Under the pieces are notes generated by a model. It ran no database searches. It was given only the letters and a program-made list of their open reading frames with translations, and was not told the origin of the DNA. Both the position numbers and the translations under genes were made by a program. Positions 7,361-49,480 of a stretch of 64,000 nucleotides of DNA are shown here, in pieces (positions within the stretch are counted from its first letter, which is position 1; each line of letters begins with the position of its first letter). Where the stretch lies: the NCBI GenBank assembly GCA_041396725.1, contig JAWKYA010000002.1, forward strand, positions 52,650-116,649, in the 5' to 3' direction. Source of the stretch: Alphaproteobacteria bacterium. Its GTDB lineage: Bacteria > Pseudomonadota > Alphaproteobacteria > JAWKYA01.

Positions 7361-7387
7361 AAGACAGACTCTGCGCAGGATAATAGC

Positions 7388-10267: not shown

Positions 10268-10358
10268 ATTTCGCAAGAAATACCCGAAGACGCTGTCGCG
10301 GGCCTTGCAGGAGATACACCACAGCGCTATAAGCCAGGGGGTAAAGTCCCAATAGGGA

Positions 10359-10435: not shown

Positions 10436-10477
10436 TTTCGCCGCTGAAAATCAGAAGATCAAATGAACCGCTATAAT

Positions 10478-11263
10478 CTATGAGTTCCGGCGTATGGGCT
10501 CATGCCAACGATGCAAAACTAACCATGTGAGTCCCGAAAATCCTGCGTAGATCGCAATACCTGTCGCTGCCAATAGAAATAAAGCCGCGAACATACGTGG
10601 TATTTCTAATCGATAACCCGCCTCGATAAGACGCCAAGCAAGGCCAGACCCTACGCCAGCAGATCCTGCGACAAACTCTGCCGCAACGGCACCAATCAAA
10701 GCAAGGCCACCTGCGATTCGTAATCCTGTCATAATATGAGGCAAGGCTGTAGGAAACTGAAGCCACCACAATACTTGCCATCGCGATGCCTTATAAAGGC
10801 GAAACAAATCCATATGACTAGGATCGACACTTACTAAGCCTTGTGCCGTATTCGCAAGAATTGGGAAAAAAGCGATAATAGCGGCACAAATGATTAACGC
10901 CCATTCCGTGTTTGGCAGATAAATCAATAATAATGGTGCAATGGCAATAATGGGCGTTACCTGCAAAACAACTGCCAGAGGTAGCAAGGCACGTTCAATC
11001 CAAATCGACTGAACGAATAAAATCGCTAAGGATATAGCGCCAAGAGTTGCAATGCTTAAGGCGATAAAACAAATCCGCAAAGTCACAAGAAGTGCGTGAT
11101 AGAGAGAGCCACCATCTTGGATAAGGCTCGCAAAAATATCGCTTGGAGCAGGTAAAACATAGGGCGGGATCTTAGTGCTACGCACCAACCCCTCCCACGC
11201 TAACAGAGCTACTATTACCATTAATGTTGAGGGGAGAATCTTCTGCGATACCAAAAATTTCAT
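10478..11263 (-). CDS. ABC transporter permease (NitT/TauT-type, binding-protein-dependent)
   Basis: 261-aa polytopic membrane protein with a permease EAA-like region. It is co-oriented with the ATPase and substrate-binding genes, and stop/start codons overlap. Confidence 0.85.
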   Translation of the reverse strand: MKFLVSQKILPSTLMVIVALLAWEGLVRSTKIPPYVLPAPSDIFASLIQDGGSLYHALLVTLRICFIALSIATLGAISLAILFVQSIWIERALLPLAVVLQVTPIIAIAPLLLIYLPNTEWALIICAAIIAFFPILANTAQGLVSVDPSHMDLFRLYKASRWQVLWWLQFPTALPHIMTGLRIAGGLALIGAVAAEFVAGSAGVGSGLAWRLIEAGYRLEIPRMFAALFLLAATGIAIYAGFSGLTWLVLHRWHEPIRRNS

Positions 11264-12042
11264 GACTCTTTCCCTCTTAACCTCTGATCCTCCTCTTCTG
11301 CTTTTGATGTAAGGATTTTCATTACCAAATTACAGGCTTGCACATAATCCACACTTGCTCGAAATGCAAAAGACCGTGGTTGCAGTGTCTCTATATTGAC
11401 TTCACCAAGGATGCGTCCTGGCCGGGGGCTCATCACTACGACGCGATGCGCTAAGTATACAGCCTCGTAAATTGAGTGCGTCACAAATACCGCCGAAAAT
11501 TTGCGCTGCTGCCACAAACTTATCAGTTGTTCATCAAGTTGAAACCGACCAATTTCGTCGATAGCAGCGAAAGGTTCATCTAAAAGTAGTAATTGAGGAT
11601 TGGTAACTAGACTGCGCGCCAAGGCAACGCGCATTTTCATGCCACCCGAAAGCTGGCGAGGGTAAGCACGTGCAAAATCTTCCAGGCCGATCAAAGCTAA
11701 AGCTTGATCGACGGAAAGGGTTGCATGCGATGGATCGGATCCTAAGCGAAGAGGTAAGGTAATATTTTCTTCTACCGTCGCCCACGGCAATAGAGTTGGA
11801 TCTTGAAAAATATAACCGATGCCTGCACCATCATCTTGGTATCCAAGCCTTATATTCCCTGTAGTTGGCGTCTCTAATCCCGCGATTAACCGCAGAAGCG
11901 TGCTCTTGCCGCAACCCGATGGCCCGACGACAGCTACAATTTCTCCCACGTTAAGAGAAAATGTAAGCGCTGAGAGAGCCGTTACACCCGAGGTATAGGT
12001 TTTTCCAACCTGATCTACCCTAACCAGTGCCGTGCCTGTCAC
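11260..12042 (-). CDS. ABC transporter ATP-binding protein
   Basis: Walker A GPSGCGKST, signature LSGGMKMRVALAR, Walker B LLLLDEP. Confidence 0.9.
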   Translation of the reverse strand: MTGTALVRVDQVGKTYTSGVTALSALTFSLNVGEIVAVVGPSGCGKSTLLRLIAGLETPTTGNIRLGYQDDGAGIGYIFQDPTLLPWATVEENITLPLRLGSDPSHATLSVDQALALIGLEDFARAYPRQLSGGMKMRVALARSLVTNPQLLLLDEPFAAIDEIGRFQLDEQLISLWQQRKFSAVFVTHSIYEAVYLAHRVVVMSPRPGRILGEVNIETLQPRSFAFRASVDYVQACNLVMKILTSKAEEEDQRLRGKES

Positions 12043-13058
12043 GGATGCCGTAACTCCTTGCCAACACCCTTATTGACGAATTGCAGAGTATACGCCTGAC
12101 GATAATCAAGATCAGGTGAGAAAACCTGAGCCTGCACCATCTTCTCAAAGAAACTTTTGACCCGAGCATCGGTCATGGCGCCGATTCCTAGCGAAAGCGC
12201 GTCGCCGCTATCAACAATACCATAGGCCTTCATCCCTGCTAAGGCTGCGGCCAATCGCGCATCCGTCATTTCTGGATTATCTTTTTTGATTAACTCATTA
12301 GCAGCACGATGATCACCATAGAGATAATTATACCAACCGATAATACTGGCATCGACGAATCGCTGAACCATATCTGGATGTTTTTCAATCGTATCAATGC
12401 GCGCCTCAATTGTTGTCGAGTATGTATCAAAGCCATAATCAGCTAGAAGAAAAACCTTAGGTTTAAAGCCACCCGTACGTTCGATCTCATAGGGATCAGA
12501 GGTTACATAACCTTGCATTCCTATTTTTTTGTCAGCCAGAAACGGTGCCGCATTAAAAGTATAAGGTCGTACCCGTTCTTCGCTAAAATCATAGGCCGCC
12601 ACCATCCATCGATAGAACGTAGCTAACCCACCTTTACCGATAAGAAGATCGATGGATTTTAAATCCTCAAATTTTTCGATACCAACATCAGGATGCGCTA
12701 ATATCGCTTGCGGCTCTTTCTGAAAAATTGCAGCGATGACTTTGGTTGGTATTTTTTGCTGAACTGCAAAAAAAGACGGAATGAGATTCCCACCCATGTA
12801 AAAATCCAATTTGCCCGTCGCCAACAGAAGCCGGTCGTTGCGTTGAGGTCCACCTGGTTCGATAACAACCTCCAGACCATATTTGCGATAGGTTCCATCG
12901 GCAACAGCCTGATAATAACCCCCGTGTTCAGCTTGCGCTTTCCAGTTCGTACCGAACACCACACGGTCGGCCGCCATGGTGGGCGATGAGTATGAGTAAA
13001 CGCCTAAGAATCCAAAAACGATCGATACTATAAAACGCATGAAGAGCTTCATCGTCAT
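12039..13058 (-). CDS. ABC transporter substrate-binding protein, NMT1/THI5 (ThiY-like) family
   Basis: Signal peptide plus NMT1-like fold (VVFGTNWKAQAEHGGYYQA...). The substrate is not determinable from sequence. Confidence 0.75.
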   Translation of the reverse strand: MTMKLFMRFIVSIVFGFLGVYSYSSPTMAADRVVFGTNWKAQAEHGGYYQAVADGTYRKYGLEVVIEPGGPQRNDRLLLATGKLDFYMGGNLIPSFFAVQQKIPTKVIAAIFQKEPQAILAHPDVGIEKFEDLKSIDLLIGKGGLATFYRWMVAAYDFSEERVRPYTFNAAPFLADKKIGMQGYVTSDPYEIERTGGFKPKVFLLADYGFDTYSTTIEARIDTIEKHPDMVQRFVDASIIGWYNYLYGDHRAANELIKKDNPEMTDARLAAALAGMKAYGIVDSGDALSLGIGAMTDARVKSFFEKMVQAQVFSPDLDYRQAYTLQFVNKGVGKELRHP

Positions 13059-20441: not shown

Positions 20442-21064
20442 GCGAAGTGCACAGTAAACTTGATAGCGTTCTTAATCGCGAACTCTGCCTGAACTTGCAC
20501 GTTTAATCGCTGCGCTAGCCGGCCAGTATAGATGGCCTGAGCGGTTAAAGCTTCTAAGTTAACTTTCGAAAATTCACCTTTTAAAGCCGCCTCGACATGG
20601 GTTGGCAAACGCACATTCTTACCCGTTGCCTGAAGCCACGGGTTCGTATTCTTAACGTTCACCTCGATTATACCGCCACCTGGTAAGCATTCGATAGCAA
20701 CGGCAACAAGATTCAGCAGAAGCTTTCCAAAACCATGATGTTCAAAAGGTTTATCGGCATGCAATCCCTCGTCCTTAAATGCGATTTTCCCTTTAGGACA
20801 AATTGCAGTCGCTAAATTACGAACCACACTGGCTGTACTTAATCCTCGATATCCTGCCGCACCATATGCCATCCGGTAAAAAAGCAATCTCTGACTAGCA
20901 AGAGCGCTACTCTCGGCTAATAACGCGAAGGCTTCCCCTTTTTCATCGCCAAGTTCTTGGATCAATTCGATCCCATTGTTAGCGGCGCCAATAGGTCCAA
21001 CAAGCTCGTGACAAAGGCGTGAACACAAATACTCGGCAAGTCGTGCATCAAGATCTTGGTCCAT
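20438..21064 (-). CDS. chpT: histidine phosphotransferase ChpT
   Basis: The [21 protein letters not shown] helix bearing the phospho-accepting His is characteristic of ChpT. The gene is convergent with and adjacent to ctrA, as in many alphaproteobacteria. Confidence 0.8.
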
Positions 21065-21168
21065 TCCCTTACCCTTGTAAAATCAGAGTTTCAAAACTTG
21101 AAGGAAAGAATTTTTACTTGTTTTATAATTCCAGGAGATTGGCAAAAAGCGTAAGGACATTTGCTGAA

Positions 21169-21360
21169 ATGACATCTGATCTTATACCCGGAAGCTACGT
21201 TCGTCATCCCGACAAACCTGAGTGGGGATTAGGTCAAGTGCAATCTGCGGTAGGATCGCGCGTTACCATAACCTTCCAACATAGCGGCAAACATTTGATC
21301 GATATACGCAGCGTGAGTTTGATCCTTCTAAGTGAGGATGATGTCCGCCAAGGCCTATAA
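21169..21360 (+). CDS. DUF3553 domain protein
   Basis: MTSDLIPGSYVRHPDKPEWGLGQVQSAVGSRVTITFQHSGK matches the short DUF3553 family that is typically found beside chpT. The start is reassigned from the 113-aa ORF that begins at 21019. Confidence 0.65.
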   Translation: MTSDLIPGSYVRHPDKPEWGLGQVQSAVGSRVTITFQHSGKHLIDIRSVSLILLSEDDVRQGL

Positions 21361-21608
21361 TCTACCAGCTGTTAGCTCTGTCCCGTTTTTCTTTACCCAT
21401 ATTAATCACATTGATAATAGCGCCCTCCTGAACGCTGGATTTGAAGTCTTCGAATCGAAGGGTTTTTATTGCAGGAAAACTCGAAATTTCAAATCAAAGT
21501 ACAGAGACTGCTTATATTTCCCACGCACGACCATCTACAACCCATATATCGAGCGGTGAGGGATACGCAGTACGCGCGGGATATAGAGATATGGGCCATA
21601 CGAATATG

Positions 21609-21642
21609 TCATATATCATATGATTAATCATATGATATATGA
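21609..21642. repeat. perfect 34-bp AT-rich palindrome (TCATATATCATATGATTAATCATATGATATATGA)
   Basis: Each position i is complementary to position 35-i across all 17 pairs (checked by hand). It lies in a 490-bp intergenic region between the DUF3553 gene and mobA. Confidence 0.9.
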
Positions 21643-21850
21643 ATATAATATATCCTCAAGTCCCATTTTATCGAGGCTTTATAAGAATAACCGCCGGCGC
21701 AGAAGACTATCTTCTTGCGCACCATCCGATTCTTTCCAAATAGCACCCTAGTTTAGTGCACGACACTAATCTCCAGGAAGATTGCCTGGTAATGGTTGTC
21801 AGTCTCAGAGCTAGAGGGATGCTTGAGATCATTTGAACAGGATATATTGG

Positions 21851-22471
21851 TTATTCAACATGCCCCGCCGTAAAACTTCGAGCAGCGCGCATTAAATCAC
21901 GCTGTGTGTTAATATTAAAAAAGGGGTCGATTTTGCTGACAGGAAACTCAACTATGACCGGCTTATAGTTCTGAGCCCAGGTAACGACTTTACGAACATT
22001 CCCGTGCACCAGAGCCTTATAAAGATCGGCCTTAAGATGTATGGACCATAATCCAACGGTTGCATGAACCTTCCCTTTGGATGCAGCCAACACAATCTGT
22101 GTTTGCGAGCCTTTCGCTTCACAAAGCCGCCGGCAGAGATCCTTGGGAAGAAAGGGCGTGTCGCTGGGAACTGTTACAATATAAGAAACTGCAGGCGATA
22201 GCGTATGCGCCCATTCCATTCCGGACAAAATCCCTGCTAAGGGTCCTAGGTGACCAGGGATCGTATCTGCGATAAAAGGCAATAAAAATTCTGTAAGCTG
22301 AGGGTAATCCCCATTTATATTGAGAGCTAAGTGATCTATCTGAGACTTAAGACAGTCGATTGCATAGGCAATCAGGGGTTTATCCGCACATATTTTGAGA
22401 AATTTATCTTCGCCCCCCATACGATGGGATAAACCGCCAGCTAAAATGACACCGGCAAGGCGAGAACTCAC
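21851..22471 (-). CDS. mobA: molybdenum cofactor guanylyltransferase
   Basis: Contains GVILAGGLSHRMGGEDK and the MobA fold, in about 200 aa. Confidence 0.85.
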   Translation of the reverse strand: MSSRLAGVILAGGLSHRMGGEDKFLKICADKPLIAYAIDCLKSQIDHLALNINGDYPQLTEFLLPFIADTIPGHLGPLAGILSGMEWAHTLSPAVSYIVTVPSDTPFLPKDLCRRLCEAKGSQTQIVLAASKGKVHATVGLWSIHLKADLYKALVHGNVRKVVTWAQNYKPVIVEFPVSKIDPFFNINTQRDLMRAARSFTAGHVE

Positions 22472-26240: not shown

Positions 26241-27075
26241 AGATCAGGTCGACGATCCCGGAAAACCCCCCAGCTCGCGCGTTGCGATCGGATCGCATCA
26301 AGATCAAAACTTGCTGTAATGACAGCCTCTTCAATCTGCCCTGCTTCTATTCGTTTTTCCCCAGTCGGGCCGGCGATAAAACTATGACCATAGAAGGTCA
26401 CTTCTGTCTCTATACCTTCCTCGCGGCCAACTCGGTTGCTCGCTACAAGCGGGATTAGATTAGCACCTGCATGCCCTTGCATAACCCGTTGCCAATGATC
26501 TTTAGAAAACAAACTTGGATCTTGAGGGCTTAGAACCAATCGCCGATAGGACCAACGAGGATCTCGGCGCCATTCAAAGTTAAACATCGCGCCGCCTCCG
26601 GGAACCACTGATCCCAGCATACCGCAGCGCCGAGCATCGCATAGCGCGTTTGGAAAACTTTAAATCCCGTATCCCCTGGACTAAAATAATATTTTTCTTG
26701 ATAGCCAGGTCCATCTGGGATGTGGCTTTTGCGGTAAAGCCCCACCATTTTCCCATCAGCATCAAAGATAGCCAAGCTATTGAAATAGGCATTGCGCGCT
26801 TTCTCAAAAAAACTAATAGGAAGCACGACGCCGAGTTTTGCCGCTAGATTCGAGAAACGCTCCAATATGGGATTATCTTCAACAGGTCGTGCCCATTTAA
26901 AAAATTCAGACCTTTGATCCTTACAGAAATAAGGTGTTTCAAAGAGCTCTTGCAGCAGGATAATTTGCGCCCCCGCCTCAGCTGCTTGGCGCACAAGATC
27001 CTCGGCGCATTTAAGATTGCCTTCATGATTGGGCGTGCACGCGAATTGGGTAGCCGCAAGGGTAACAACAGTCAT
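26207..27075 (-). pseudogene. aguB: N-carbamoylputrescine amidase, split by one frameshift near 26530-26620
   Basis: ORF 26530-27075 is the N-terminal CN-hydrolase part (IILLQELFETPYFC...VCWDQWFPEAAR). ORF 26207-26620 is the C-terminal part (DHWQRVMQGHAGANL...FYGHSFIAGPTGE...RDRRPDLY) in another frame. Together they make one ~290-aa AguB. Confidence 0.7.
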
Positions 27076-28205
27076 GACAATTCCTTCAAGAGATTATCAA
27101 TGCCTCGGGGCATCTGTTGGGTAATGCAGTGAATACCTCCTCCACCCTCTACGATAGCCTGGGCTGGCACTTGGACAATCTGCCGATCTGGACAAGCGCG
27201 CTGAAGCTTTTGATAAGCAGCAGCATCGGTGGCATCATCAAAGGATGGCAGAATAATACCGCCATTCGCAAAATAAAAATTAATATAGGATAAAGCTAAG
27301 CGGCGGCCATTTTGACCAATTCGACACGGTGGTTGTAAGAGTCGGATAATATCAAAAGCACGGCCTTTAGCATCCTTTGTTTTCTCAAGATAATCAATGT
27401 TAGCTTTCAATGCTTCATAATTGCCGTCAGTTTCATCATCCGTATCCAGTACGGCTACAACCCCAGGCGCGAGAAAACAAGCGACATTATCAACATGACC
27501 ATCCGTTTCGTCGTCTTCTAAACTACCAGGCAACCAAACAACCTTTTCTACCCCAATATAATCTCGCAAATATTTTTCCATAGCTTGCCGGGATAGGTTC
27601 GGATTGCGGTTTGAATTTAGCAAAACCGAAGATGTTGCAAGACAAGTTCCCTCCCCATCGACATGGATTGCACCGCCCTCCATAACAAAAGGCGCGGCAT
27701 AACGGGGGATCTTTAGTGAAGAAAGTAAACGACGCGCCATAACAGCATCAGCAGAAAAATCAGAGTAGTTTCTGCCCCAGGCGTTAAATTGCCAATCAAC
27801 ACCCGCAAGATTTCCATGATTGTTGATTATAAACGTAGGGCCTATATCCCGGGTCCAGCTATCGGTCAGCACCATCGGCGTCACAGAAATTCCTGGACCA
27901 CAAATCTGGGATGCCTCTGCTACCTGAGCAGGATTAGCCAGCATCGTAACCGGCTCGAAGATGGCAATCGCTCTAGCGATTTCAGCAAAGGCTGAGTACG
28001 CCGCTTGACGCCTTTCTGAGGTCGCGATGCCGAACGTTCCTTCATGGCATGGCCAAGCCATAAAACATCGCTGATGGAGGGCCCATTCAGGGGGCATGAC
28101 ATAACCATCAGCGGAAGGCACACCAGATCGAGGTGGCGGACCTTGCTCGGCATCGCCATCCCAATTTCCACCTAAAATCAACATAAGCTCCAGTAAAAGA
28201 GCCAT
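27072..28205 (-). CDS. aguA: agmatine deiminase
   Basis: Member of the porphyromonas-type peptidylarginine deiminase family (MPPEWALH...WTRDIGPTFI...DGHVDNVACF...GGGGIHCITQQ). Confidence 0.85.
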   Translation of the reverse strand: MALLLELMLILGGNWDGDAEQGPPPRSGVPSADGYVMPPEWALHQRCFMAWPCHEGTFGIATSERRQAAYSAFAEIARAIAIFEPVTMLANPAQVAEASQICGPGISVTPMVLTDSWTRDIGPTFIINNHGNLAGVDWQFNAWGRNYSDFSADAVMARRLLSSLKIPRYAAPFVMEGGAIHVDGEGTCLATSSVLLNSNRNPNLSRQAMEKYLRDYIGVEKVVWLPGSLEDDETDGHVDNVACFLAPGVVAVLDTDDETDGNYEALKANIDYLEKTKDAKGRAFDIIRLLQPPCRIGQNGRRLALSYINFYFANGGIILPSFDDATDAAAYQKLQRACPDRQIVQVPAQAIVEGGGGIHCITQQMPRGIDNLLKELS

Positions 28206-28213
28206 CTGCCCGA

Positions 28214-29332
28214 CTATAAACGCAAAGCTTCCTCTGGTGGGACATAAGCAAGTTTATGCGCCTCCGCGACGGCTTTATAAGTGATATGTCCCTCGTGAAC
28301 ATTGAGACCATTTAGCAAATGCCGGTTTTCAGTCAATGCAACCCGATACCCTTTATTGGCCAGCGCTAAGGTAAAGGGAAGTGTCGCATTGTTTAAAGCT
28401 ACAGTTGAAGTTTTAGCCACTGCCCCTGGCATGTTTGCAACACAATAGTGAACTACACCGTCGATGTTATAAGTAGGATTGGCATGAGTGGTCGGACGGG
28501 AAGTTTCAAAACATCCACCTTGATCGATAGCGACATCCACTAAGACCGAGCCACGCTTCATCCGTTTAATCATATCACGGGTTACCAACTTGGGCGCAGC
28601 AGCGCCCGGCACCAAAACTGCACCAATAACGAGATCGGCTGCCAAAACCTGTTCTTCGATGGACTCAACTGTCGAATAAAGAGTGTCTAAGCGGGCGCCG
28701 AACAATTCATCAAGTTGAGCTAGGCGCGATAAGGACTTGTCAATGACCGTTACTTGAGCCTCCATCCCAATTGCCATACGCAAGGCATTAGTACCAACAA
28801 CGCCACCGCCGATCACCACGACCTTCGCCGATGGTACGCCAGGAACACCTCCTAACAATACGCCAGCGCCACCTTGTGCTTTTTCCAAGCAATGGGCACC
28901 GGCTTGGATCGACATGCGGCCTGCAACTTCGCTCATCGGTGCAAGAAGTGGCAACCCACCTCGAAGATCCGTTACAGTTTCATAGGCAATAGCCGTCGCA
29001 CCACTATCGATGAGATCTCGAGTTTGATCTAAATCTGGTGCCAAATGTAGGTAAGTAAATAAAACTTGGCCCTTGCGAAGCATTTTGCGCTCTACCGCTT
29101 GTGGCTCTTTAACCTTTACAATCATTTCTGCGCGCGCCCAAATATCTTTAGCTTGATCAACAATTTCCGCACCCGCCGCCCGATATCGTTCATCATCAAA
29201 ACCAATGGCCGTACCTGCACCTGCTTCAATAAGAGTGCGGTGACCATGATGAATCAATTCACGGACGCTCGTTGGGGTTAAGCCCACACGGTATTCTTGA
29301 TCTTTGATTTCGCGAGGGACGCCGATTAGCAT
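28214..29332 (-). CDS. ald: alanine dehydrogenase
   Basis: Starts MLIGVPREIKDQEYRVGLTP, with the NAD-binding motif VVVIGGGVVG, in 372 aa. This is closer to Ald than to PntA. Confidence 0.85.
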   Translation of the reverse strand: MLIGVPREIKDQEYRVGLTPTSVRELIHHGHRTLIEAGAGTAIGFDDERYRAAGAEIVDQAKDIWARAEMIVKVKEPQAVERKMLRKGQVLFTYLHLAPDLDQTRDLIDSGATAIAYETVTDLRGGLPLLAPMSEVAGRMSIQAGAHCLEKAQGGAGVLLGGVPGVPSAKVVVIGGGVVGTNALRMAIGMEAQVTVIDKSLSRLAQLDELFGARLDTLYSTVESIEEQVLAADLVIGAVLVPGAAAPKLVTRDMIKRMKRGSVLVDVAIDQGGCFETSRPTTHANPTYNIDGVVHYCVANMPGAVAKTSTVALNNATLPFTLALANKGYRVALTENRHLLNGLNVHEGHITYKAVAEAHKLAYVPPEEALRL

Positions 29333-29394
29333 ATTCTTCTCCTAATAAACTTGGTCGACTACGGAGTAGTCGTAGGTAAAATAATTTTAAGCGC

Positions 29395-29520
29395 TGATAC
29401 AATAAGGGACCATGCGCCCCATAGAACTAAACCACCCCCGATCAGGATACCAATAAAAATCTTCAGAAGAAGCATAGGATCGATTAACCGGCGGTGCGGT
29501 ACTTTTTGCGATTCCATAAT
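29395..29520 (-). CDS. hypothetical small membrane protein (~41 aa)
   Basis: Short ORF below the 60-aa track cutoff, translating MESQKVPHRRLIDPMLLLKIFIGILIGGGLVLWGAWSLIVSA. It has a single TM helix. This is a speculative call. Confidence 0.2.
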
Positions 29521-29759
29521 ACCCTCTTTATTGATCAGTTATCCTTGATGCCCCTAAATACCCTACCTTAGGTATCTTACCTAGAATCATTCCTTTGTAC
29601 GACCGAACTTAGGGTTGTTTGTAAAGGTTATGAAAACGCTCTAAAAAAGCTGCTTCGGCGGTCTTTGTTGGCCATGGTACCAAATTAAAAACTGGCAAAA
29701 TAGGAAGCGTACCGAAGCTTTATCCATCCTTGAAGAAAATCCAGCAAAGATGCCGCGCC

Positions 29760-30221
29760 TCAGTGAGGCACCAAACGATCCGCTTGCTTGATGAGACGCT
29801 GGAGAATTTCCGGAGCCGCCGCGGGTAAACCGAATCGCAAAAATATGGCTCGCGATAAACGATGTTCAATCGTCTTATAACCCTGTCCAATAGCCTTTTT
29901 GAAAGGTGTGATAAGATCACTGATAACATATTCCGGTGCATCATGGAGAAGGGTCGTCAGTTGAGCTGACTTCAGAGGTTGAACGCTTAAATAATCAACC
30001 AAATCACAAACCAGAAGAGAATGTTGAGCTACGCTGAATGGGTATGCACCAATAGTTTGACCGTTCCAGCAGGGTATTCTTGCTAAGCCGTGAGCGATAT
30101 CTTCGATCTCTATATCGAGAGGCGACGGATCTAAAAGATCTAATCGTCGCCCACTAAGCATACGCTGCCATGCGCGCTGCGGCTTTTTCTCTATCGGCAT
30201 GTTCCAGAGCCCTGCGGCCAT
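29760..30221 (-). CDS. HD-domain phosphohydrolase (YfbR-like), possibly C-terminally truncated
   Basis: HD motif in YPFSVAQHSLLV...LLHDAPEYVISDLITPFK. At 153 aa it is shorter than typical family members (~190 aa). Confidence 0.5.
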   Translation of the reverse strand: MAAGLWNMPIEKKPQRAWQRMLSGRRLDLLDPSPLDIEIEDIAHGLARIPCWNGQTIGAYPFSVAQHSLLVCDLVDYLSVQPLKSAQLTTLLHDAPEYVISDLITPFKKAIGQGYKTIEHRLSRAIFLRFGLPAAAPEILQRLIKQADRLVPH

Positions 30222-31332
30222 AGTCTAAAAACAAACGTAGCCAAGCGACCATTGCCATTTACATACGGAACTTTGATTGCACCTCGCTCTCCTGCTTGTG
30301 GGTCTAGCGCAAAAAGCTTCTGCGCTTCGGGAATAATACTTGTTTCGCGCACATCTCCATCACCACTCCAAATGACCAGGCACTGCCCTGAGGTTGCGCG
30401 AACAGGTGGTATGTAGTGAGGATAGAGTGCCGACAAAAATCGTGATCCTGGAAACTGAAGCTTTTAAATCTCCGGCGATAAAATAAGGATAGTTATGGGC
30501 ATAGACTGTCCCGCCAACAAACCCTGCTGACCTTAATTGCTGCGCGATCTCATCATAAGGAATATGAAGGGGTGCCCATTTATTAGCACGACAAACCATA
30601 TAAGTGACAGCTAAAGCAATAGGAACGACAAGAGCGAGGCCAAAACCGTATAGATAGGCTTTAAAGGCAGTTTTTATATCCGATATTTTCAATCCGATAA
30701 AAGGCCCACAAGGGTAGCGGAAAAAGCAGAACATATAATGGATGCGCACGCAGGTCGTTCCGTCAGTAGAACCATCGAGACTGTCACAAGAACGACTGCA
30801 TTAGAATACCTACCAATTAAGCGGCCGAGCATTTGGCCTTCGTTCGTAGGTGCGGAGAAAGTTCGGAACAAGCATGCCAAAAGGGGAAGCAAAACCGCAA
30901 ATGGCAAGACAAAGCTTATAACAGCCTCGCCCCAGGCCCTGAGACCCATAAAAGCTTGGGTCAACCACTCCGTATCATTTGCTATCTGAAACTTTTGTAC
31001 CGTAACATCGCCCATGAGAGATCGCTGATCCAACAGCCATAATCCATGAGAGGTGCTATAATAGCGATGGCGATACTGGCGATTACTCAGAACGATGTAT
31101 AGATTGCTGAAGCTTTGGCAGGTAAAGCTTCTCCACAAGGCGACAGCCATAAAACAAACAAGAAAAATCGCGTAATTATATTGGCAAGCAGGCCCAGACC
31201 CATAGCAAATCCTAAGGCAAGGTACCGAGAAAACCGCCGTGTGGTATGAATTTGATAAAATACGTAAATTGTTGCCATTATCGCAGCCAGCAGCATGATA
31301 GAATGGGTGTAGGTGCGTATACTATCAGGCAA
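30191..31332 (-). pseudogene. ArnT/PMT-like membrane glycosyltransferase (GT83/GT39), fragmented into at least 4 frames
   Basis: Four consecutive minus-strand ORFs (31087-31332, 30689-31150, 30360-30749, 30191-30436) in different frames. Each encodes polytopic-membrane segments consistent with one ~480-aa ArnT-like protein, and it lies immediately downstream of a GT2 remnant, as in arnC-arnT pairs. Confidence 0.6.
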
Positions 31333-31705
31333 AATAATAGATTGCGAGTGGGCTAGGGGCTGGCAGCGATAATGAGTTTTTATTTGTAAATACAGTGTGC
31401 GAGGCGATCCTGGAAAAAGAAAATAACACCAAAGAACAAGAACTTTATCAAATAGCGCTCACTGCGGTAATGCCGAAAAAGATGCTCGGAGATAATGACC
31501 AGCCAGGTTGGCAAGACAGGGTTTGGTAGATGATACCCTGCAAGAAATCCCGATTGAGCGAATAAAATCTGTTCGGCATCATCGCACACTAGCGATGGAT
31601 AGGCAAAAGCACGCCAGAGAAAAAATCAAACCAAGATAAAGCGTAAGGAAGCTATAGAAGCCTTTGACGTTAAAGGCGATCAGCCATTGCGATCCAGCCT
31701 TTAGC

Positions 31706-32760
31706 CTAGAGCGCGGTACGCTTTTCAGCGTAGATCAACCACAAGTTCCGTGCATATATAAAGATTCCGAACATATTTCCTAAGATAAATACAAGATCCT
31801 TCCGATAAAGAGAATAAGCTAATAGAATTCCTCCACCTAAAATGCTGCAATACCAAAACATGATTGGGATCGTACTGCGTTTAGCGTACCGAAACAGCCA
31901 TTGCAAAATAAATCGAGCTGAAAAAAGAACCTGACCCGATAAACCAATAGCAATCCAAATAGTCTCTGTACTCATCACTTCTTCACCTTCATATCGCTTA
32001 AGTTTGCGACAACAGGTCGACGATACCGTCGCATAAAGGCAAGCCACACCGAACAAATCGACGATACCGACTAGGCCTCGGTCAATAATTCCATAATGAG
32101 ATTTTCCTTTTAATCGGGGTCGATTGACGACAGGAACTTCAATCAATGTATAGCCGCTTCGCTTAATTGTACTGGCAAAAAACGATGCATATTGTCGAAA
32201 ACAGGGAGCGCTAAAACGCCTCGCGCGGTAAACAGCCGCAACCGCTATCGCGTGCGCCATCCTTTAAGAGAAACTGTCCGAAACCGATTCGCAATCTTAG
32301 GGGTAAACACGCCAGCTTTCCCGTCATTCGAATTCTGCCTTACAGCAGAAACTAATCGCAGCATAGAGGTCAACTGAAGCATCCCGCGCAGCCAATAATT
32401 TGGATCTCCAGATGGAACATCTTGACCATCACCATCCATGGTCACTATCCACCCCTTCGGCCGCTGTTATCCCGGTAACCAAGCCTGCGGTTTTGCCGCA
32501 CTGCATCATATGACAGAGAACCCGCAGTTTGGGTGGTCCGATAAAGCCGATAAAGCTCGTCTCGGCTACTATCATCGCTACCGTCATCAACCACGATAAT
32601 CTCGCAATGCTCGTTAATAATCGAACGACTTAGAAAGGATAAAGTTGTATTAATTTCCGATAAAAGAGGTTCAATATTCTTCCAGCTTCGTTGTGCGCCA
32701 GGATCACAACGGACAAGCTTACCACCACAGGATCCCTATGAAATGCTGCCTAATCCCAGA
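31706..32760 (-). pseudogene. GT2 polyprenyl-phosphate glycosyltransferase (ArnC-like) with C-terminal lipid-A-disaccharide-synthase-N-like membrane domain, N-terminal part disrupted
   Basis: ORF 31706-32260 carries the GT2 C-terminus (GYTLIEVPVVNRPRLKGKSHYGI.DR) plus a three-helix membrane domain. Upstream in other frames there is DGDGQDVP (32245-32445) and an ...NIEPLLSEI......EIIVVDDG remnant around 32590-32700 interrupted by stops. Confidence 0.6.
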
Positions 32761-33006
32761 TTAGGATTATTAAAATAAATTCATCCTAGTTCATCTCCCT
32801 GCTCATGCCACAAGTTAGGTATACCATAGAAAAGTGATGCACATCACGCCGAAACCGTGTCAAATATCACTCAATTTGTGTGATGACCATCATTTCAAAA
32901 TTACCGCATCTATCTAAATCTTCGCACCTATGACGCAGAATTACACAGAGTACAAAGAGGTCTAAATGGTGCCGTCACCTAGCTCTCCCCGGTACTCGGT
33001 GCGGGC

Positions 33007-33625
33007 ATGATAACGATGGCGGCTCTTCTTGCAGGCACTCTTGCTCAGATGAAGACTGCCGCGATAGAAGTATCGCCTATCGGCGTTGTGGATGAGGTCC
33101 GCAACGATGCTTTCGGCACCCTTCCCAATCGTGCACCAGAACGGTTACGTAACACAGCAGCTGTTTTTTTCGATGAACGTATCAACTTCTGTCAATGCGC
33201 TAAGCCGGCTTTTATTCGTAGACGATACGACCTTAACTGTTGGCGCCAACTCTTCAATGATTCTCGATCGTTTTGTCTACGATCCCAAAACGGCCAAAGG
33301 CGAAATCCTTGTCCATATGGCGACAGGCGTCTTCCGCTTCGTTTCCGGTAAGATGCCGAAGGAAAATGTTACACTGGTTACGCCCGGCGCTTCCATCGGT
33401 ATTCGCGGGACGGACTTTATCGTCGAGATCTTGGGTGACGGCACTACCCGTGTCAGCGTTCTGCACGGACGCGTCATTATGACCCCTACAGCTGGCGGCA
33501 ATACATTTTCCTCGAACTTGGTCAGATGGCTCCGATTGCTAAAGAGCATGAAAACTGGTCAAGTTGAAACATGTCCTGCATCAAATTGCGCACCTAGCAC
33601 AGAAACAGCAGCTACGACCTTGTGA
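33007..33625 (+). pseudogene. FecR-domain protein, interrupted by a frameshift near 33185-33200
   Basis: ORF 33007-33351 has an N-terminal signal-like region and GTLPNRAPERLRNTAAVFFDERI. The +1 frame ORF 33086-33625 continues with LLFVDDTTLTVGANSSMILDRFVYDP...FVSGKM...VTPGASIGIRGTDFIV, which is the FecR domain PF04773 pattern. Confidence 0.5.
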
Positions 33626-33883
33626 CTACAGTTGTTTTTGGTATTAAAGCACCAAACGGCCAGTACCAGCCTGGCATACAGCTCAGGATATAGAGCCCGC
33701 CACACCAAATCCAACAACGGCCACACGCAGTGAGTTATCTGTGGGAAAGATATGCAACGGCTGGTGACCGCAGCCGGCCGCGCGTTTCTCAACCCCAGAG
33801 ACCTAAGAGCGGTGGACAACCTCCCCACGGTGATGGATCCCCAATTAATCGACCGTTTTTCATCCAATAGCGGTGAAATAGGT

Positions 33884-36377: not shown

Positions 36378-36577
36378 TTGGTTTGAGAGGATCCCATAAA
36401 TGACAGATCGCCGTTAACTTGTGAAGAGGTGCAGAACCCTATGATAACTTAGATTATTAACGTATCACAGGGAGTTGAGGCAGATTTTGTTTCCTTCTCT
36501 TTGGCGTTGCTTTAGCATTTGTCCCCTTGGGATATCGACACGCGAGGAGGCTTCCGATGGTACGCGCAGGTTCTTTT

Positions 36578-37930
36578 ATGCGGCAGGGTTTTACGGTTGG
36601 TCTTATAATCAGTGGCCTTATGGGCTTTGCCGCTTTAGCAGCTGATATGACGGCTACAATAAAAGAACGTCAGGCACTCATGAAAGACATGGGTGCAAAA
36701 ATGGGGATCATCAGTGGTTTTATCAAAGAGAGTAAAGGTACTCCTGCGGATGTAGGAGTTGCTGCACAAGTTATCGCCAACCATGCACCTAAAATCCCTG
36801 CCCTCTTTATCGAAGGTTCCAGCCTTGATAAGGTGAAAGATCCCAAGACAGGTGCCAAGCCGGAAATTTGGACGGATTGGGCTAAGTTCGAAGCGGCGGC
36901 AAAAACTTTAGCCGATGAGGCCACCAAGCTGAACGCTGTCGCTAAGGGTGGCAACAAAGATGAAATCGCTGTGCAGTTTGGCAAAGTCGGTGCTGCCTGC
37001 AGCGCGTGCCATACCCCTTCGGGAGAAGATTTAATCCTTGGGGCGCGTAGGATTTCGGTATGCGCCCTTTTCTTACCCTCAGTATCGCAGCGCTTAACTT
37101 TATCCGATCTATTATCTCCCCTCGCCTGGAGCGCAGAGCCTGACGCAAAACGGGGTGCCTATATTTTCTCAGCAGCAGGATGCCAGGGGTGCCACACGGA
37201 TAGCCGTAACAGCGGTCAAATAGGCGCTGGGGGTCGCGCTTTAAAAACCCCCTTTGGCATTTTTTATGGCCCAAACATTACACCGGATCCTGACTATGGC
37301 ATCGGATCATGGTCTTCTGTAGATTTTCACCGTGCCCTCCGGGAAGGTATACGCCGAGATGGCTCTCCTTATTATCCAGCCTTCCCTTACGCTGCCTTCA
37401 CAAAAATGTCCGACCAGGACATTGATGATCTTTATGCCTACTTGTTAACCTTACCACCAGTCAAACAGCCCAGCAAACCTCATGAGCTTGGATTTCCCTG
37501 GAGTATCCGCACCGGTATTTGGGTCTGGCGGATGCTTTATTTTATACCTGGCCCTTTGTCTGCCAGTCCAAACCGATCGAACGATTATAACCGCGGCCGC
37601 TATCTAGTCGAAGCCTTAGGTCATTGTGAGGAATGCCATACGCCGCGAACCAGCCTTGGAGGTTTAGAAAATAATCGTGCCTTTAGTGGCAGTAAAGTAG
37701 GCCCTGAAGGCGGCAAGGTTCCTAATATTACCCCCCATGCCGATGGGATCGCAGATTGGAGCGAAGCAGATATCACAACAGCCCTTGAAGATGGGATGCG
37801 GCCGGATGGCGATTTCATTGGGGGTGCCATGGGAGAAGTTATCGCTAATTCTACCAGCAAGTTAACACCGGCAGACCGCAAAGCAATCGCTGTTTATTTG
37901 AAATCTCTTGTACCTCAACCTGGTCCTTGA
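36578..37930 (+). CDS. cytochrome c: class II (c'/c556-like) N-terminal module read through into a dihaem cytochrome c module (possible frameshift fusion)
   Basis: Residues ~1-165 have a signal peptide, a four-helix-bundle pattern and C-terminal AACSACH, as in cytochrome c'/c556. The rest has two further CxxCH sites (AAGCQGCH and GHCEECH), as in COG2010 dihaem cytochromes. An out-of-frame ATG at 37060 begins a signal-peptide-like MRPFLTLSIAAL. Confidence 0.55.
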   Translation: MRQGFTVGLIISGLMGFAALAADMTATIKERQALMKDMGAKMGIISGFIKESKGTPADVGVAAQVIANHAPKIPALFIEGSSLDKVKDPKTGAKPEIWTDWAKFEAAAKTLADEATKLNAVAKGGNKDEIAVQFGKVGAACSACHTPSGEDLILGARRISVCALFLPSVSQRLTLSDLLSPLAWSAEPDAKRGAYIFSAAGCQGCHTDSRNSGQIGAGGRALKTPFGIFYGPNITPDPDYGIGSWSSVDFHRALREGIRRDGSPYYPAFPYAAFTKMSDQDIDDLYAYLLTLPPVKQPSKPHELGFPWSIRTGIWVWRMLYFIPGPLSASPNRSNDYNRGRYLVEALGHCEECHTPRTSLGGLENNRAFSGSKVGPEGGKVPNITPHADGIADWSEADITTALEDGMRPDGDFIGGAMGEVIANSTSKLTPADRKAIAVYLKSLVPQPGP

Positions 37931-46300: not shown

Positions 46301-46529
46301 TCACTACATCGCAAGCCGTGTACATGTCGGCAATATTTACGTTAATCGCACCATAATCGGCGCCACCGTCGGCGTTCAGCCCTTCGGAGGCGAAGGTCTA
46401 TCCGGCACCGGTCCGAAAGCAGGTGGCCCCCATTATCTGCCCCGATTTGCAACCGAACGCACCCTCAGCATCAATACCGCAGCCGCTGGCGGAAATGCGT
46501 CGCTTCTGGCTTTAAGCGAAGAACCCTAA
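43386..46529 (+). CDS. putA: bifunctional proline dehydrogenase / L-glutamate gamma-semialdehyde dehydrogenase
   Basis: About 1047 aa. It has a PRODH beta8/alpha8 region, then an ALDH domain (FTGSTQTAW, EAGGQNAM, catalytic Cys in GQRCSALRVLFLQE). The start is at MTFIDQTF inside the longer ORF. Confidence 0.9.
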   Translation: MTFIDQTFPAASPERNTLRKALYMDEAAALRQLVNSIDLSSEVLHRIEARAISFVKKIRETEAERSGIDSLLQEFALSTDEGIALMCLAEALLRIPDSTTADKLIKDKVATADWEKHLGQSDKLLVNASAWTLMLTGKVLRLDNNASNDMDRALRRIVTRSGEPVIRQAITQAMRILGRQFVMGRTIDEALERAKTLEARGYRYSYDMLGEAARTMADADRYFESYRQAIVSIAKASHGRGPIEGPGISVKLSALHPRYEFAQKQRVIDELTPRLISLARQAAAANIGFCVDAEEAERLDLSLDLIKATALDSSLGSWQGFGLAVQAYQKRAPYVIDWLIALAREAKRPLCVRLVKGAYWDTEIKQAQVNSLPSYPVFTRKVATDVSYLACAQRLLGAGDLIFPQFATHNAHTLSAILEFANAHRDYEFQRLHGMGESLYEQIVDTDKLNRSCRIYAPVGSHEDLLAYLVRRLLENGANTSFVNRIAHAELPIERLVEDPIQRIHNLDYAPHPRIPLPSRLYGDERRNSKGLDLNDPLTVETLAQDMAVIWENRHWDSHDTPTHGTIDSIHDPTDTRRIVGKVIPATIDDVHTAVTKAAAAQPEWNERGAEARALILDRIADLYESHMVELMTLAVREAGKTLPDAIAEVREAVDFCRYYALRARTDFTKPELMPGPTGERNTLSLQGRGAFVCISPWNFPLAIFTGQIAAALAAGNTVLAKPAEQTPLIAGRAVALMYKAGIPKEVLHLLPGSGEDVGAPLVRDPRIAGVAFTGSTQTAWNIAEALAQRQGPIIPFIAETGGQNAMIVDSSALPEQVVADVVTSAFRSTGQRCSALRVLFLQEDIADHIETMLAGAMAELVVGDPGHLATDVGPVIDKDAQEALSRHLDWLAAHGRLIAQTPLPDSAEHGWFVAPTAYAIDRIDQLTQENFGPILHVIRYRGDQLNDIIHDINATGYGLTLGIHTRIDSAAHYIASRVHVGNIYVNRTIIGATVGVQPFGGEGLSGTGPKAGGPHYLPRFATERTLSINTAAAGGNASLLALSEEP

Positions 46530-46699
46530 GTTTATAAGGAAAATGGCCTTACTGGTGGGTTCAGGGCTGGTTTTGATAGTTATGAGAATGAGAATGACTT
46601 GCAATTAAGATCTAGGAGCAGTAAATAACTCCTATCTCATCATCCGTGCCTGAAGCTTCGCACTGAGCAAGTCAACTGAGCCTATATCCAGGAGAGCAT

Positions 46700-47704
46700 A
46701 TGATCACGAAGGAACTAAGGTTGGTGAGTCCCACCTTGGAGACTTTTTGCCTCGGCTGCCGCCGCGCAACAGGAAGTCAATATTTATAGCGCCCGGCACT
46801 ATCAAACCGATGAAGCGCCGAGGAGAACTTTGGTCAAGACGACCGGCATCCAAATTAACCGGATCGAAGAGACAGATGATAAATGCACATAGATTGTTTG
46901 CGCGAAGGTGTTAATAGCCCGGGTGATATTTTGATCCTCGTAGACGCAGGCCGACTATGGCAGCGTCGAGGAGGCCGGGCTGTTCCAGCCGGTTCGTTCT
47001 GGAAATCCGGACGAGCGAATTCCTACAAATCTTCGTCATCCTGATGGCTTATGGTTTGATTTTCAACCCGAGCGCAAGCCATATTCTATAACAGGATCGT
47101 AAAATCTGGCGAAGAAAAACTGCGAAGACTTGGCCGATCCTAAACGAGCGTGGCTGGTGCGCCCGCTCAAGTCTGAATGTTTATAATCATATCGTTGATG
47201 GCCGCCATGATCGAGCGTCTGGTGAACAGAAAGCTGAAGCTTGGGCCAAAGCGTAGTCGCCAATTTTGCTCGCGACCTCGAAGGGAGCCGATACGGATCG
47301 CTTTTAGCTGCCGCGATGATAAGCAGTGCGCCATCGTCCTGCACAATCATTATTACTATATGCGCATGGCCAGTCCGGTACGGCCATGGAACGCAAAGCA
47401 ATGACTAAGTTACAAATCGTATGGCCTAATCAAGATCTGTCTGGCACCCACACCAATGTTTCCAGGGGCTGGGGTCTGGCGTACCGCCCCACAAAGAAGC
47501 TGCTATCAAGTTCGGAGTATTTAGCTTCTGATGCGGCGCAAGGCTATTTCTGCCAATGGCAATAATGAATTTCCTGCTGTTGCCAAGGCACTGAATAACC
47601 TTGAGCTCAAGGCACTGGGCTCCTTTAAGGCAGATCCTATCAATGTTGTGGTTTATGGCAAAAATCAATCCAGCAGAATCGGCGATCGTGCAGGATGGAA
47701 ATAA
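46700..47704 (+). pseudogene. fbpA: iron(III) ABC transporter periplasmic binding protein, multiple frameshifts
   Basis: The ATG at 46700 follows an AGGAGAG RBS. Translating across three plus frames recovers FASAAAAQQEVNIYSARHYQTDEA, ...TTGIQINRIEE..., ...ILIL VDAGRLW...(GLFQPV), ...ANGNNEFPAV... and ...INVVVYGKNQSSRIGDRAGWK*, all typical of FbpA/AfuA. No single open frame exists. Confidence 0.7.
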
Positions 47705-47799
47705 CCACCATCCTCCTTATGGTATGCATAGAGAATAACCCCTCGCTATCCATCATAGCGAAATTTTCTAATTAAATAGTCGAGAAGAAATCACCATAC

Positions 47800-49480
47800 C
47801 GACGCCATTACGGGAAATCGTAATAACTGGAAGAAGCCCTACAAACACAATAACCAACGCTGCTGTCGACGTGCCTCCGCCAATCTTTCATCGCTAGCAA
47901 AGCAGTATGCTGCACAGCAAGGGTAGAAAAATTATCAGTTGCAGAATAAGAGCAGCTGGCAATTCTTTCATCGCATCGACAAAGACCAACCCTGCGGCCA
48001 GCACACCGCGCCGCAACAGCGCCAGTGCACTTGGCACAAACTTCGCCACACGCTTGCACCTAAAACGCGTACATCGTTCCATTGCCGACGGAATCTTGGC
48101 AAACCTGCATCGACATTGAACGGCAACCGTAGAAACCGTACCAGATATGCAGCGATCAGAGCACTCCAGCTTCCGCTGAACAAGCCCGGTTGAAATGTTG
48201 ACGCACAAATCCGTCAACTGCGTTATCGATAAAGGCAAAAGGAAGCAGAACTCCAACAGCGATCACTGAGCTCAAATAGCATACCCCAAACTAGTAAAGA
48301 TGCTTCCTATCCTATGTAAGCCTTGAGGATAAAGTCGCCGCCCGTATACCAAAAGCGTCGCAATCACGACGGCAAGACTTGTCGTTATCGTCGCAAGACG
48401 CAGGCTGTTCCCAATGAGAGCAAAATAGCGCGGACCAAGTTCCCGTCTCCCACAAGTGAAAGCTAGACGCAACAAACGTGACCGGTAACAGAAATCCTAG
48501 GAAGACAGGAAAGAAAGCATGATTGCGCTCCCATTGCCTTCGCTCCCGCAGGGTTTTACCAACCACTTCAGTGTGACGGCGCATTACTATGAAACCGGCG
48601 GTGACCACGAGCCCAACGTTCCCAAAAATAAGTACATACGTGAATAAAAAGGAAGGAGGAAAAGTCTTGGCCGACGCAATATGATCCCCCTCATGGAAAA
48701 CCACGCGCGATATACGCCAACGGTTAAAGTTGGGATACCGAAGTAAGAAACGACCCCATAGTCTGCTAAGGTCTCCATTGCGACCAAGGCTAAGCCTGCC
48801 ACCAAGGCCGGCCGCGCCAAGGGTAAGGCAATGCGGAAGAAACTTCGCCACGGTGTCCGGCTTAGGGTACGGGCAACTTCGAGAGCCGAAGCTGATTGAT
48901 CGAGAAATGCCGCGCGCGCGATTAGATAAACATACGGATAAAGCGCTACTGTAAAAATGAGAATAGCACCACCCAGAGAGCGGATATCGGGAAACCAGTA
49001 ATCCTGTACTGCCCAACCCGTTGCATCGCGCAGCATCGTCTGCACGACACCTGCCGATTGAAAGAAATTAGCATAGGCATAAGCCATGATATAGGCAGGA
49101 ACAGCGAGAGGTAAAACCAAAGCCCATTCAAAAATCCGAACACCAGGGAATCGGAAAGAGACCACTAGCCAGGCGGCGCCGACACCAACAACATAGCTCC
49201 CCCCTATAACACCTATGAGAAGTACAATGCTGTTAATAATATAGTCAGCAAGAACGGTATGAGTTAGATGGAGGAGCGTGCCTTGATCCGTCCGTAGCAA
49301 GTTGGTGAGGACGGTTAAAATTGGAATTGAAAATAAGATAATGATCAAGACAGGCACAACAGCCAGTATCATGCGTGATACGCCGTAAGATCTTATCCTT
49401 AGGCGCGCAGGAATGGGGGCTGAGGTTGTTGTCATTAATGAAAAAACACTACTAAAACCATGCCAAGAAGCTAATGCCAA
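47800..49480 (-). pseudogene. fbpB: iron(III)/FbpB-type two-domain ABC transporter permease, frameshifted
   Basis: ORF 48587-49480 is the N-terminal permease domain. Fragments in other frames at 48312-49016, 48272-48475 and 47894-48256 (ending ...VFVDAMKELPAALIL, the conserved permease C-terminal motif) represent the second domain. Confidence 0.6.

Follow-up and report, generated by a model that had tools for sequence, protein, structure and literature searches.

Clustered frameshifts in an alphaproteobacterial GT2/LAB_N/GT-C operon are probably consensus errors of a MAG contig

The stretch of DNA that was analysed, 64,000 nucleotides in length and hereafter called the window, comes from a 121,821-bp contig of a metagenome-assembled genome (MAG), which has locus tags of the form R3E60_... 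and is named 'Alphaproteobacteria bacterium' at NCBI. It contains an ordinary operon that encodes, in this order, a GT2 glycosyltransferase, a small LAB_N membrane protein, a GT-C glycosyltransferase and an HD-domain hydrolase, accompanied by a divergently transcribed FecR-like gene. An earlier interpretation made from the letters of this DNA (the sequence-only reading) had placed both glycosyltransferases here, each split into several frames, and had taken their loss as a sign of host adaptation. Intact loci of the same gene order were found in five relatives (L001, L006, L013, L015 and L017), and the pairing of GT2 with GT-C recurs in four distant alphaproteobacterial loci. Brucella and Ochrobactrum had been put forward as the reference; the relatives turned out to be uncultured Alphaproteobacteria, and among the matches listed the closest intact one comes from a MAG recorded as 'uncultured Rhodospirillales bacterium'. 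Frameshift-aware alignment to L001 yielded a single GT2 and a full-length, colinear GT-C. When the window was scanned for Rfam families and tRNAs, a tRNA-Pro gene (10359-10435) was the only match, and nothing turned up within the GT2, LAB_N or GT-C genes.

The GT2 gene is located on the minus strand at 31975-32728 (~248 codons; DPM1/ArnC/GtrB-like) and was, as proposed before, of the polyprenyl-phosphate type. It is 67% identical to the GT2 of L001 and was also aligned at the nucleotide level to four relatives. Compared with L001 it carries nine frameshifts (32670, 32534, 32455, 32405, 32374, 32271, 32212, 32168 and 32038) and no in-frame stop, and the DDGSDD and DGDGQD motifs are retained. 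The stitched protein matched PF00535 (E=2e-12; score 47.8 bits, cut-off 23.3), for which its relative P0002 scored 90.5 bits. In sequence searches of the PDB, P0002 matched ArnC best (9e-19), followed by DPMS and GtrB. The stitched GT2 obtained just 34.6 bits with the ArnC equivalog model NF007986, far below the cut-off of 529, and falls outside that group. Judged by sequence, ArnC is only the nearest solved relative. Because GT2 proteins of the window's clade have 248 aa, against ~370 aa for those located beside GT-C genes in the distant loci, the data suggest that this clade has a short GT2 without a membrane anchor.

Immediately downstream, the LAB_N gene (31975-31706, minus strand) encodes an 89-aa membrane protein of the PQ-loop/MtN3 clan, which scored 87 bits with PF07578 (gathering score 26.7). 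Its reading frame is intact, without any frameshift, and the product is 73% identical to the L001 protein. The sequence-only reading had recognized the LAB_N-type domain correctly and had considered it fused to GT2. A 184-aa open reading frame on the minus strand (31706-32260) does join the C-terminal part of GT2 to LAB_N, but this apparent fusion is an artefact of the reading frame: by a +1 insertion near 32037 the end of GT2 comes to be read in the frame of LAB_N. The LAB_N gene starts with an ATG of its own (31975-31973) that overlaps the stop codon of GT2 (TGATG), and in all close relatives GT2 (248 aa) and LAB_N (91-92 aa) are separate genes. The NCBI annotation likewise gives LAB_N as a separate 89-aa protein (MEZ5647455.1), and an exact-protein look-up found no record of the 184-aa product. 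True GT2-LAB_N fusions do exist elsewhere (P0006). A literature search on the function of LAB_N/PF07578 returned only a paper on the PQ-loop superfamily.

The GT-C gene (Pfam PMT_2; minus strand, 31698-30191; ~500 codons) is 66% identical to that of L001 and colinear over its full length with relatives of 509 aa. At least ten frameshifts distinguish it from the L001 gene (31623, 31481, 31452, 31394, 31327, 31181, 30765, 30727, 30675 and 30461), and nucleotide alignment to relatives indicates two further likely ones near 31080 and 31052. Here too no in-frame stop was observed, and the DDAEQ loop motif is retained. The relative P0121 scored 77.3 bits with PF13231 (PMT_2; gathering score 26.1) and belongs to that family; the stitched window protein reached just 20.7 bits because of the frameshifts. 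No match at E<=0.01 was obtained when the family profile was compared with PDB sequences, and none of the NCBIfam ArnT models was matched, so that by sequence the protein is not assigned to ArnT/GT83. Since the PDB sequence search was empty, the predicted fold was used instead. The AF2 model of P0121 (pLDDT 94.6) placed the ArnT structures 5F15 and 5EZM on top in a Foldseek search of the PDB (TM 0.58-0.63); OST, Emb and PMT ranked below them, and 5F15 was the best solved match at TM 0.63. The model thus points to an ArnT-like three-dimensional architecture, in agreement with the ArnT/PMT-like polytopic enzyme that had been proposed beside GT2. The family is large and uncharacterised, with 2056 clusters (50% identity) matching at E<=0.001.

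Two more genes complete the locus. The start of the fourth gene of the operon, which encodes an HD/YfbR-like hydrolase (29612-30200, minus strand), overlaps the end of the GT-C gene; its product is 78% identical to a 198-aa protein of L001, matches PF12917 weakly and contains two frameshifts (29770 and 29717), both within the last 55 codons. On the plus strand, the gene for the FecR-domain protein (32962-33813) shows 64% identity to its L001 counterpart in a frameshift-aware alignment, with six frameshifts (33184, 33510, 33544, 33624, 33689 and 33753) and no stop.

These lesions together define a tract, 29717-33753, here named tract 2, that holds 27 frameshifts in five genes, without a single in-frame stop and with gene lengths preserved. 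The nine frameshifts in GT2 and the at least ten in GT-C contrast with none in the neighbours Icd, Ald, PAD, PSS and PSD, which is far above chance; the earlier claim that both genes are split is therefore borne out, and both show the multiple frame disruptions against intact orthologues by which pseudogenes are recognized. These 19 frameshifts are of both signs, 1-2 nt in size and occur in unrelated sequence contexts that share no slippery motif. It is conceivable that the genes are expressed by programmed frameshifting or transcript slippage, and the absence of in-frame stops from the reconstructed frames is the sole observation in favour of this; given 19 shifts of both signs in unrelated contexts, and since to our knowledge no recoding system does anything of the kind, we give this explanation practically no credence.

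A more serious alternative is that GT2, GT-C, the HD hydrolase and the FecR-like gene are recent pseudogenes, decaying as part of a wider gene loss, and that LAB_N was spared by chance or is still useful. Several observations agree with this. The clearly indispensable neighbours Icd, Ald, PSS and PSD are all free of lesions, the indels differ from one another in size and context and are no homopolymer slips, and the window contains additional split genes (an amidase, a rumA-like gene and an ABC permease). Moreover, divergence residuals are slightly positive in all six tract genes. The spectrum of the lesions, however, does not resemble decay. Tract 2 and the nearby carbamoylputrescine amidase gene together contain 30 frameshifts and no in-frame stop, although 3.7% of single-base changes would create one. 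The absence of stops puts the number of substitutions for each frameshifting indel below 2.7 (95% bound); the probability of finding none is 1.5e-5 at ten substitutions per indel. Measured bacterial ratios range from 2.8 to 9.7, the value of the listed alphaproteobacterium being 9.7 (PMC4978911, Table 1). The amino-acid distances of the frameshifted genes exceed the expectation from intact neighbours by 1-5 points, each with z<1, and therefore provide no clear excess divergence. Thus, the tract-2 genes lack the signature of relaxed selection, which consists of in-frame stops and excess replacement changes. The indels are small, gene lengths remain within 1-3% and no long deletion was observed, while deletions in natural pseudogenes average ~19 nt (PMC6054270). 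A distribution of lesions over the whole gene is compatible with GT2 and GT-C; in the HD hydrolase gene they are confined to the last 55 codons.

A second lesion tract in the window (tract 1, 2053-5489) allows this comparison to be extended to two further genes, and both violate such a whole-gene distribution. Most of ppdK lies within it, with 38 frameshifts and 5 stops, and so does most of glyS, with 27 frameshifts and 3 stops. In ppdK all 43 lesions are located in codons 3-682 and none in the last 209 codons (683-891), the 3' end being clean (P~1e-5), and in glyS ~30 lesions follow ~199 clean codons at the 5' end (P~1e-4). The partner gene glyQ is intact (84% identity). This pattern, with the first ~199 codons of glyS and the last 209 of ppdK untouched, is impossible by gene-wise decay. 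In addition, independent contigs break off at the borders of the tracts, and one of them continues into healthy-looking sequence. On balance, we consider real pseudogenisation of the operon unlikely. The related view that the loss reflects host adaptation was not supported: the tracts also wreck glyS, a signature of decay is lacking and contig ends coincide with the tract borders, and no evidence in favour of the host-adaptation story was obtained. The absence of an AMP-binding gene beside a rhomboid gene was considered as another sign of decay and was rejected, as the relative L015 also lacks it. A supposed glyS frameshift at 5587 was likewise discarded; it belongs to the reference contig L020 and not to the window.

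The contigs that end at the tracts are informative. Contig L021 (SRR28338156) is 100% identical to the window from 242 to ~1985, and its end coincides with the border of tract 1. Its last ~65 nt differ from the window, towards a conserved, healthy-looking sequence; this end keeps the length and the residues of the reference (a run of 25 amino acids), whereas in the window two codons are added and conserved residues altered at this position. Similarly, contig L016 from the same read set matches 28023-29701 with 100% identity, and 16 nt separate its end from tract 2. A literature search for the accession SRR28338156 gave no match. When genome and metagenome collections were scanned with the GT-C alignment, the matches listed were all intact relatives, and a second copy from the window's lineage was not among them. 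Exact look-ups of the 184-aa, 153-aa and 89-aa open reading frames and of the prolyl isomerase returned none recorded as a placed gene.

The sharp switch between L021 and the window, from 100% identity to ~12% difference over 65 nt, together with the fact that the first differences are in-frame, would also be accounted for if the window were a mosaic of two genomes, in which the tracts derive from a divergent population or allele through natural recombination or mis-joining during assembly and the lesions belong to the minor genome. A divergent allele that functions, however, would not be interrupted by frameshifts at intervals of 50-150 nt, glyS would be needed by any donor as well, and the amino-acid distance of tract 2 to the reference clade is about that expected for the same lineage. 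Such a chimeric origin therefore appears very unlikely to us.

We conclude that the 19 frameshifts of GT2 and GT-C, like the others among the 27 of the 4-kb tract around them, are probably consensus errors in a low-quality stretch of the MAG contig. This conclusion follows from three lines of evidence: the lesion tracts ignore gene borders and hit most of the essential glyS gene; the 30 frameshifts are accompanied by no stop, almost no extra divergence and no long deletions, and the catalytic motifs are kept; and independent contigs end at the tract borders, L021 running into a healthy-looking version. At tract 2 itself an artefact is the probable explanation; of the independent contigs found, L016 stops just short of it and none spans its inside. 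Such a tract could arise, for example, where error-prone long reads alone provide the coverage. Two reports describe gene-fragmenting consensus errors in long-read and hybrid assemblies (PMC12007338 and PMC11017572). The lesions resemble such errors in that they are dominated by indels, include few substitutions, keep gene lengths and are placed regardless of gene function; they differ from typical long-read consensus errors in that they are not centred on homopolymers and are confined to tracts of 3-4 kb.

Some observations speak against an artefact. The indels show no concentration at homopolymers, so that the classic nanopore/454 signature is absent; a homopolymer test was non-discriminating, since clean sequence and the corresponding regions of relatives have the same run-length spectra as the tracts. 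Gene-wise decay would be compatible with tract 2 if that tract were considered by itself: its five affected genes are all plausibly dispensable, the lesions are spaced roughly as a Poisson process, and the clean LAB_N has P~0.15. At a B. subtilis-like ratio of ~3 substitutions per indel, moreover, the absence of stops is just mildly improbable (P~0.04). The artefact reading also does not explain why an assembler would leave tracts of 3-4 kb unpolished. A further reading takes the lesions as real and ascribes them to an indel-dominated mutational process that acts on tracts of 3-4 kb in an uncultured alphaproteobacterial population, with one frameshift per 50-150 nt, few substitutions, no long deletions and no regard for gene borders, and that knocks out, among others, the envelope glycosylation operon and most of glyS; we regard this as highly unlikely. 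Real frameshifts would mean that a pathway for envelope-sugar modification has been lost. If they are consensus errors, the contig contains several unreliable tracts and pseudogene calls in MAGs need support at the level of reads.

On the reading that the frameshifts are consensus errors, both transferase genes are probably intact in the organism. For the operon itself a function can be proposed. On the inner side of the membrane, the soluble-type GT2 would transfer a sugar from its nucleotide-linked form to undecaprenyl phosphate, the three-helix LAB_N protein would anchor GT2 and/or present the lipid-linked sugar on the outer side, and the GT-C of ArnT-like fold would pass the sugar to a periplasmic acceptor, for which lipid A or the LPS core is one possibility. 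The ArnC/ArnT (PmrF/PmrK) pathway, which adds aminoarabinose to lipid A, likewise combines a GT2 enzyme making a polyprenyl-phosphate sugar with a GT-C transferase. However, the P0121 model is just 12-13% identical to ArnT, the GT-C profile (A1) has no PDB sequence match, and a LAB_N protein takes the place at which ArnE/ArnF would act. ArnC chains in the PDB have 322-363 aa and carry a C-terminal membrane hairpin; because of this size difference, the hairpin seems to be missing from the 248-aa GT2 of the window's clade. Among the genes with Pfam annotation that surround the operon in the intact relative loci, neither arnA/B/D/E/F-type genes nor families of ara4N biosynthesis were found.

The same three-gene logic, GT2, a small membrane protein and a GT-C, is displayed by the GtrA/GtrB/Gtr(type) cassettes for O-antigen glucosylation, and GtrB matched the GT2 relative P0002 at 2.5e-13. 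The small protein of the window is LAB_N (PF07578, PQ-loop clan) and not GtrA, which is of a different family; moreover, Gtr cassettes are usually phage-borne, whereas the locus studied here is chromosomal and syntenic across its clade. A further likeness is with the eukaryotic DPM1/MPDU1/GT-C mannosyltransferases, since the locus has a short DPMS-type GT2 beside a PQ-loop-clan protein and a GT-C; DPMS (5MLZ) was matched by P0002 at 2e-13. MPDU1 is required if dolichol-P-sugars are to be used, and it shares its superfamily with LAB_N (PMC3281891). LAB_N, a half-size unit of three helices, may by analogy have a similar role. The pairing of a short GT2 with an MPDU1-related LAB_N is a modest clue to the way in which monosaccharides linked to lipid are passed across the membrane.

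Three co-linear genes on the minus strand (32728-30191) encode, in this order, GT2, LAB_N and GT-C. The stitched GT2 translation matched the Pfam model for family-2 glycosyltransferases (PF00535, E=2e-12) and gave weak matches to NCBIfam's PgfS and ArnC models. LAB_N, of 89 aa, matched PF07578 with 87 bits, and over its whole length the GT-C gene aligned with a small group of PMT_2 proteins of 509-518 aa. Looking up GT-C relatives yielded intact syntenic loci (L001/L007, L006, L013, L015 and L017), in which the order is LOG, Icd, prolyl isomerase, FecR (opposite strand), GT2 (248 aa), LAB_N (91-92 aa), GT-C (509 aa), an HD-type hydrolase (185-198 aa), a 52-aa ORF, alanine dehydrogenase, agmatine deiminase and carbamoylputrescine amidase. 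This order recurs, reversed, in the window. The operon genes are real and ordinary. Exact look-ups placed the window proteins on record as MEZ5647420-MEZ5647460, from an NCBI MAG named 'Alphaproteobacteria bacterium' (locus tags R3E60_..., 121,821-bp contig). Nothing points to Brucella or Ochrobactrum, the frame of reference of the sequence-only reading; among the matches listed, the closest relative with intact genes comes from a MAG that bears the label 'uncultured Rhodospirillales bacterium'.

To map the breaks we wrote a frameshift-aware protein-to-DNA aligner and used the L001 proteins as reference. The earlier observation that two genes lie in several frames was correct, since GT2 carries nine frameshifts (67% identity) and GT-C ten (66% identity); nucleotide alignment suggests two further GT-C frameshifts near 31080 and 31052. 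The LAB_N gene is free of frameshifts (73% identity). Frameshifts were also found in the HD hydrolase gene (two, both within the last 55 codons), in FecR (six) and in the amidase gene (three). Two +1 insertions spaced by only 16 nt (26528-26544) break up the latter gene, with a further site at about 26215; its sequence is otherwise clean (76% identity to relatives), and the adjoining agmatine deiminase gene is intact.

GT2 had also been read as fused to LAB_N. This fusion is a reading-frame artefact: the GT2 stop codon TGA (31977-31975) overlaps the LAB_N start codon ATG (31975-31973), the two genes are separate in every close relative, and the NCBI annotation gives LAB_N as its own protein. 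The 184-aa ORF arises because a +1 insertion near 32037 shifts the GT2 tail into the LAB_N frame. True GT2-LAB_N fusions are known elsewhere (for example P0006).

The lesions form tracts irrespective of gene borders. One tract, at about 29.7-33.75 kb, holds the operon. Another, of 3.4 kb (2053-5489), wrecks ppdK and glyS, as scored by alignment to a second reference contig, L020. In ppdK, 38 frameshifts and five stops fall in codons 3-682 and none in the last 209 codons (683-891); in glyS, an essential gene, all 27 frameshifts and three stops follow about 199 clean codons. Its partner glyQ is intact (84% identity). Real recent decay, which we consider unlikely, would have to leave these ends clean under an even spread of lesions along a dead gene (P about 1e-5 for ppdK and about 1e-4 for glyS). 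By itself, the 29.7-33.75 kb tract is consistent with five dispensable genes decaying, with LAB_N staying clean by chance (P about 0.15). In L020 itself, a related JGI metagenome contig whose GlyS is 75% identical, one frameshift near codon 167 causes glyS (6497-8576) to be called as two ORFs of 179 and 523 aa; a window glyS lesion at 5587 was a false call, the frameshift being that of L020.

The lesion spectrum also fails to fit decay. Together, the five frameshifted genes in and near the operon contain 30 frameshifts and no in-frame stop. As 3.7% of the possible single-base changes in these genes would yield a stop, this implies fewer than 2.7 substitutions per frameshifting indel (95% bound); at 10 substitutions per indel, zero stops has P = 1.5e-5. 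In mutation-accumulation data, bacteria show between 2.8 and 9.7 substitutions per indel, with 9.7 for Agrobacterium (PMC4978911). The amino-acid distance of the frameshifted genes is only 1-5 points above that expected from intact neighbours. The indels are short, gene lengths being kept within 1-3%; deletions in natural pseudogenes average about 19 nt (PMC6054270). In favor of decay, and as a caveat to an artefact, the indels show no centring on homopolymers.

At the tract borders, independent data break off. Window proteins are also encoded on two contigs from an assembly of run SRR28338156. One of them, L016, matches 28023-29701 with 100% identity and stops 16 nt short of the first lesion of the operon tract. 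The other, L021, agrees fully (100% identity) with window positions 242 to about 1985 and ends at the border of the ppdK/glyS tract; its last 65 nt retain the reference PPDK length and residues, where the window has two extra codons and changed conserved residues. None of the independent contigs found reaches into the 29.7-33.75 kb tract, and within that limit we conclude that the breaks are probably not biological but a consensus or assembly artefact, because the tracts ignore gene borders, the spectrum is not that of decay, contigs break at the borders and the window holds other such damage (permease, rumA-like and amidase genes). A mosaic or chimeric contig is less probable still than decay. 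The presumed inactivation of GT2 and GT-C is therefore most likely an assembly artefact, and its reading as host adaptation finds no support.

The function of the operon we infer throughout. The best solved-structure sequence matches of a GT2 relative were ArnC (9e-19), dolichol-phosphate-mannose synthase and GtrB, all of which produce polyprenyl-phosphate sugars. The GT-C relative P0121 had no match in the PDB by sequence; its structure, predicted from a 71-sequence alignment (pLDDT 94.6), had two ArnT structures as top PDB fold matches (TM 0.58-0.63), ranking above oligosaccharyltransferases, Emb and PMT. The proposed arnC-like/arnT-like pair holds for the closest solved GT2 match and the GT-C fold and is predicted to work like ArnC/ArnT, but at the sequence level the two enzymes fall in neither family. 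The GT2 and GT-C pair recurs in distant alphaproteobacterial loci, which have a GT2 of about 370 aa and lack LAB_N; locus L008, like this clade, has a GT2 of 248 aa with LAB_N as the next gene. Two of the distant loci, L009 and L010, have at about 9880-12510 a homologous GT-C gene followed by the longer GT2 with no LAB_N, which suggests that LAB_N and the C-terminal membrane segment of GT2 are alternative answers to one need. LAB_N belongs to the PQ-loop superfamily, also home of MPDU1, a factor required for dolichol-phosphate sugar use (PMC3281891). In the likely scheme, GT2 would synthesise an undecaprenyl-phosphate sugar, LAB_N would anchor GT2 and/or offer the lipid-linked sugar at the outer face, and the ArnT-fold enzyme would move the sugar onto a putative periplasmic acceptor.

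Elsewhere in the window, a third stretch without a long ORF (46527-48600, about 46.5-48.6 kb) is an ABC permease tract: the minus-strand two-domain permease gene (BPD_transp_1) keeps an open frame through the first ~297 codons (48587-49480) and is broken downstream. A tRNA/rRNA uracil-5-methyltransferase-like (rumA-like) gene (57925-59219) is seemingly split into overlapping ORFs of 249 and 200 aa, the frame changing once near 58617-58674. Some 790 nt without a long ORF (21064-21851) separate the ChpT-like and MobA-like genes, against about 160 nt in L015; this could be an insertion or a gene remnant. Finally, 36527-37930 is a single 467-aa ORF where relatives have two genes, one for cytochrome c' (158 aa) and one for a cytochrome c of 286 aa; the sole difference detected lies in the last few codons of the cytochrome c' gene (37016).
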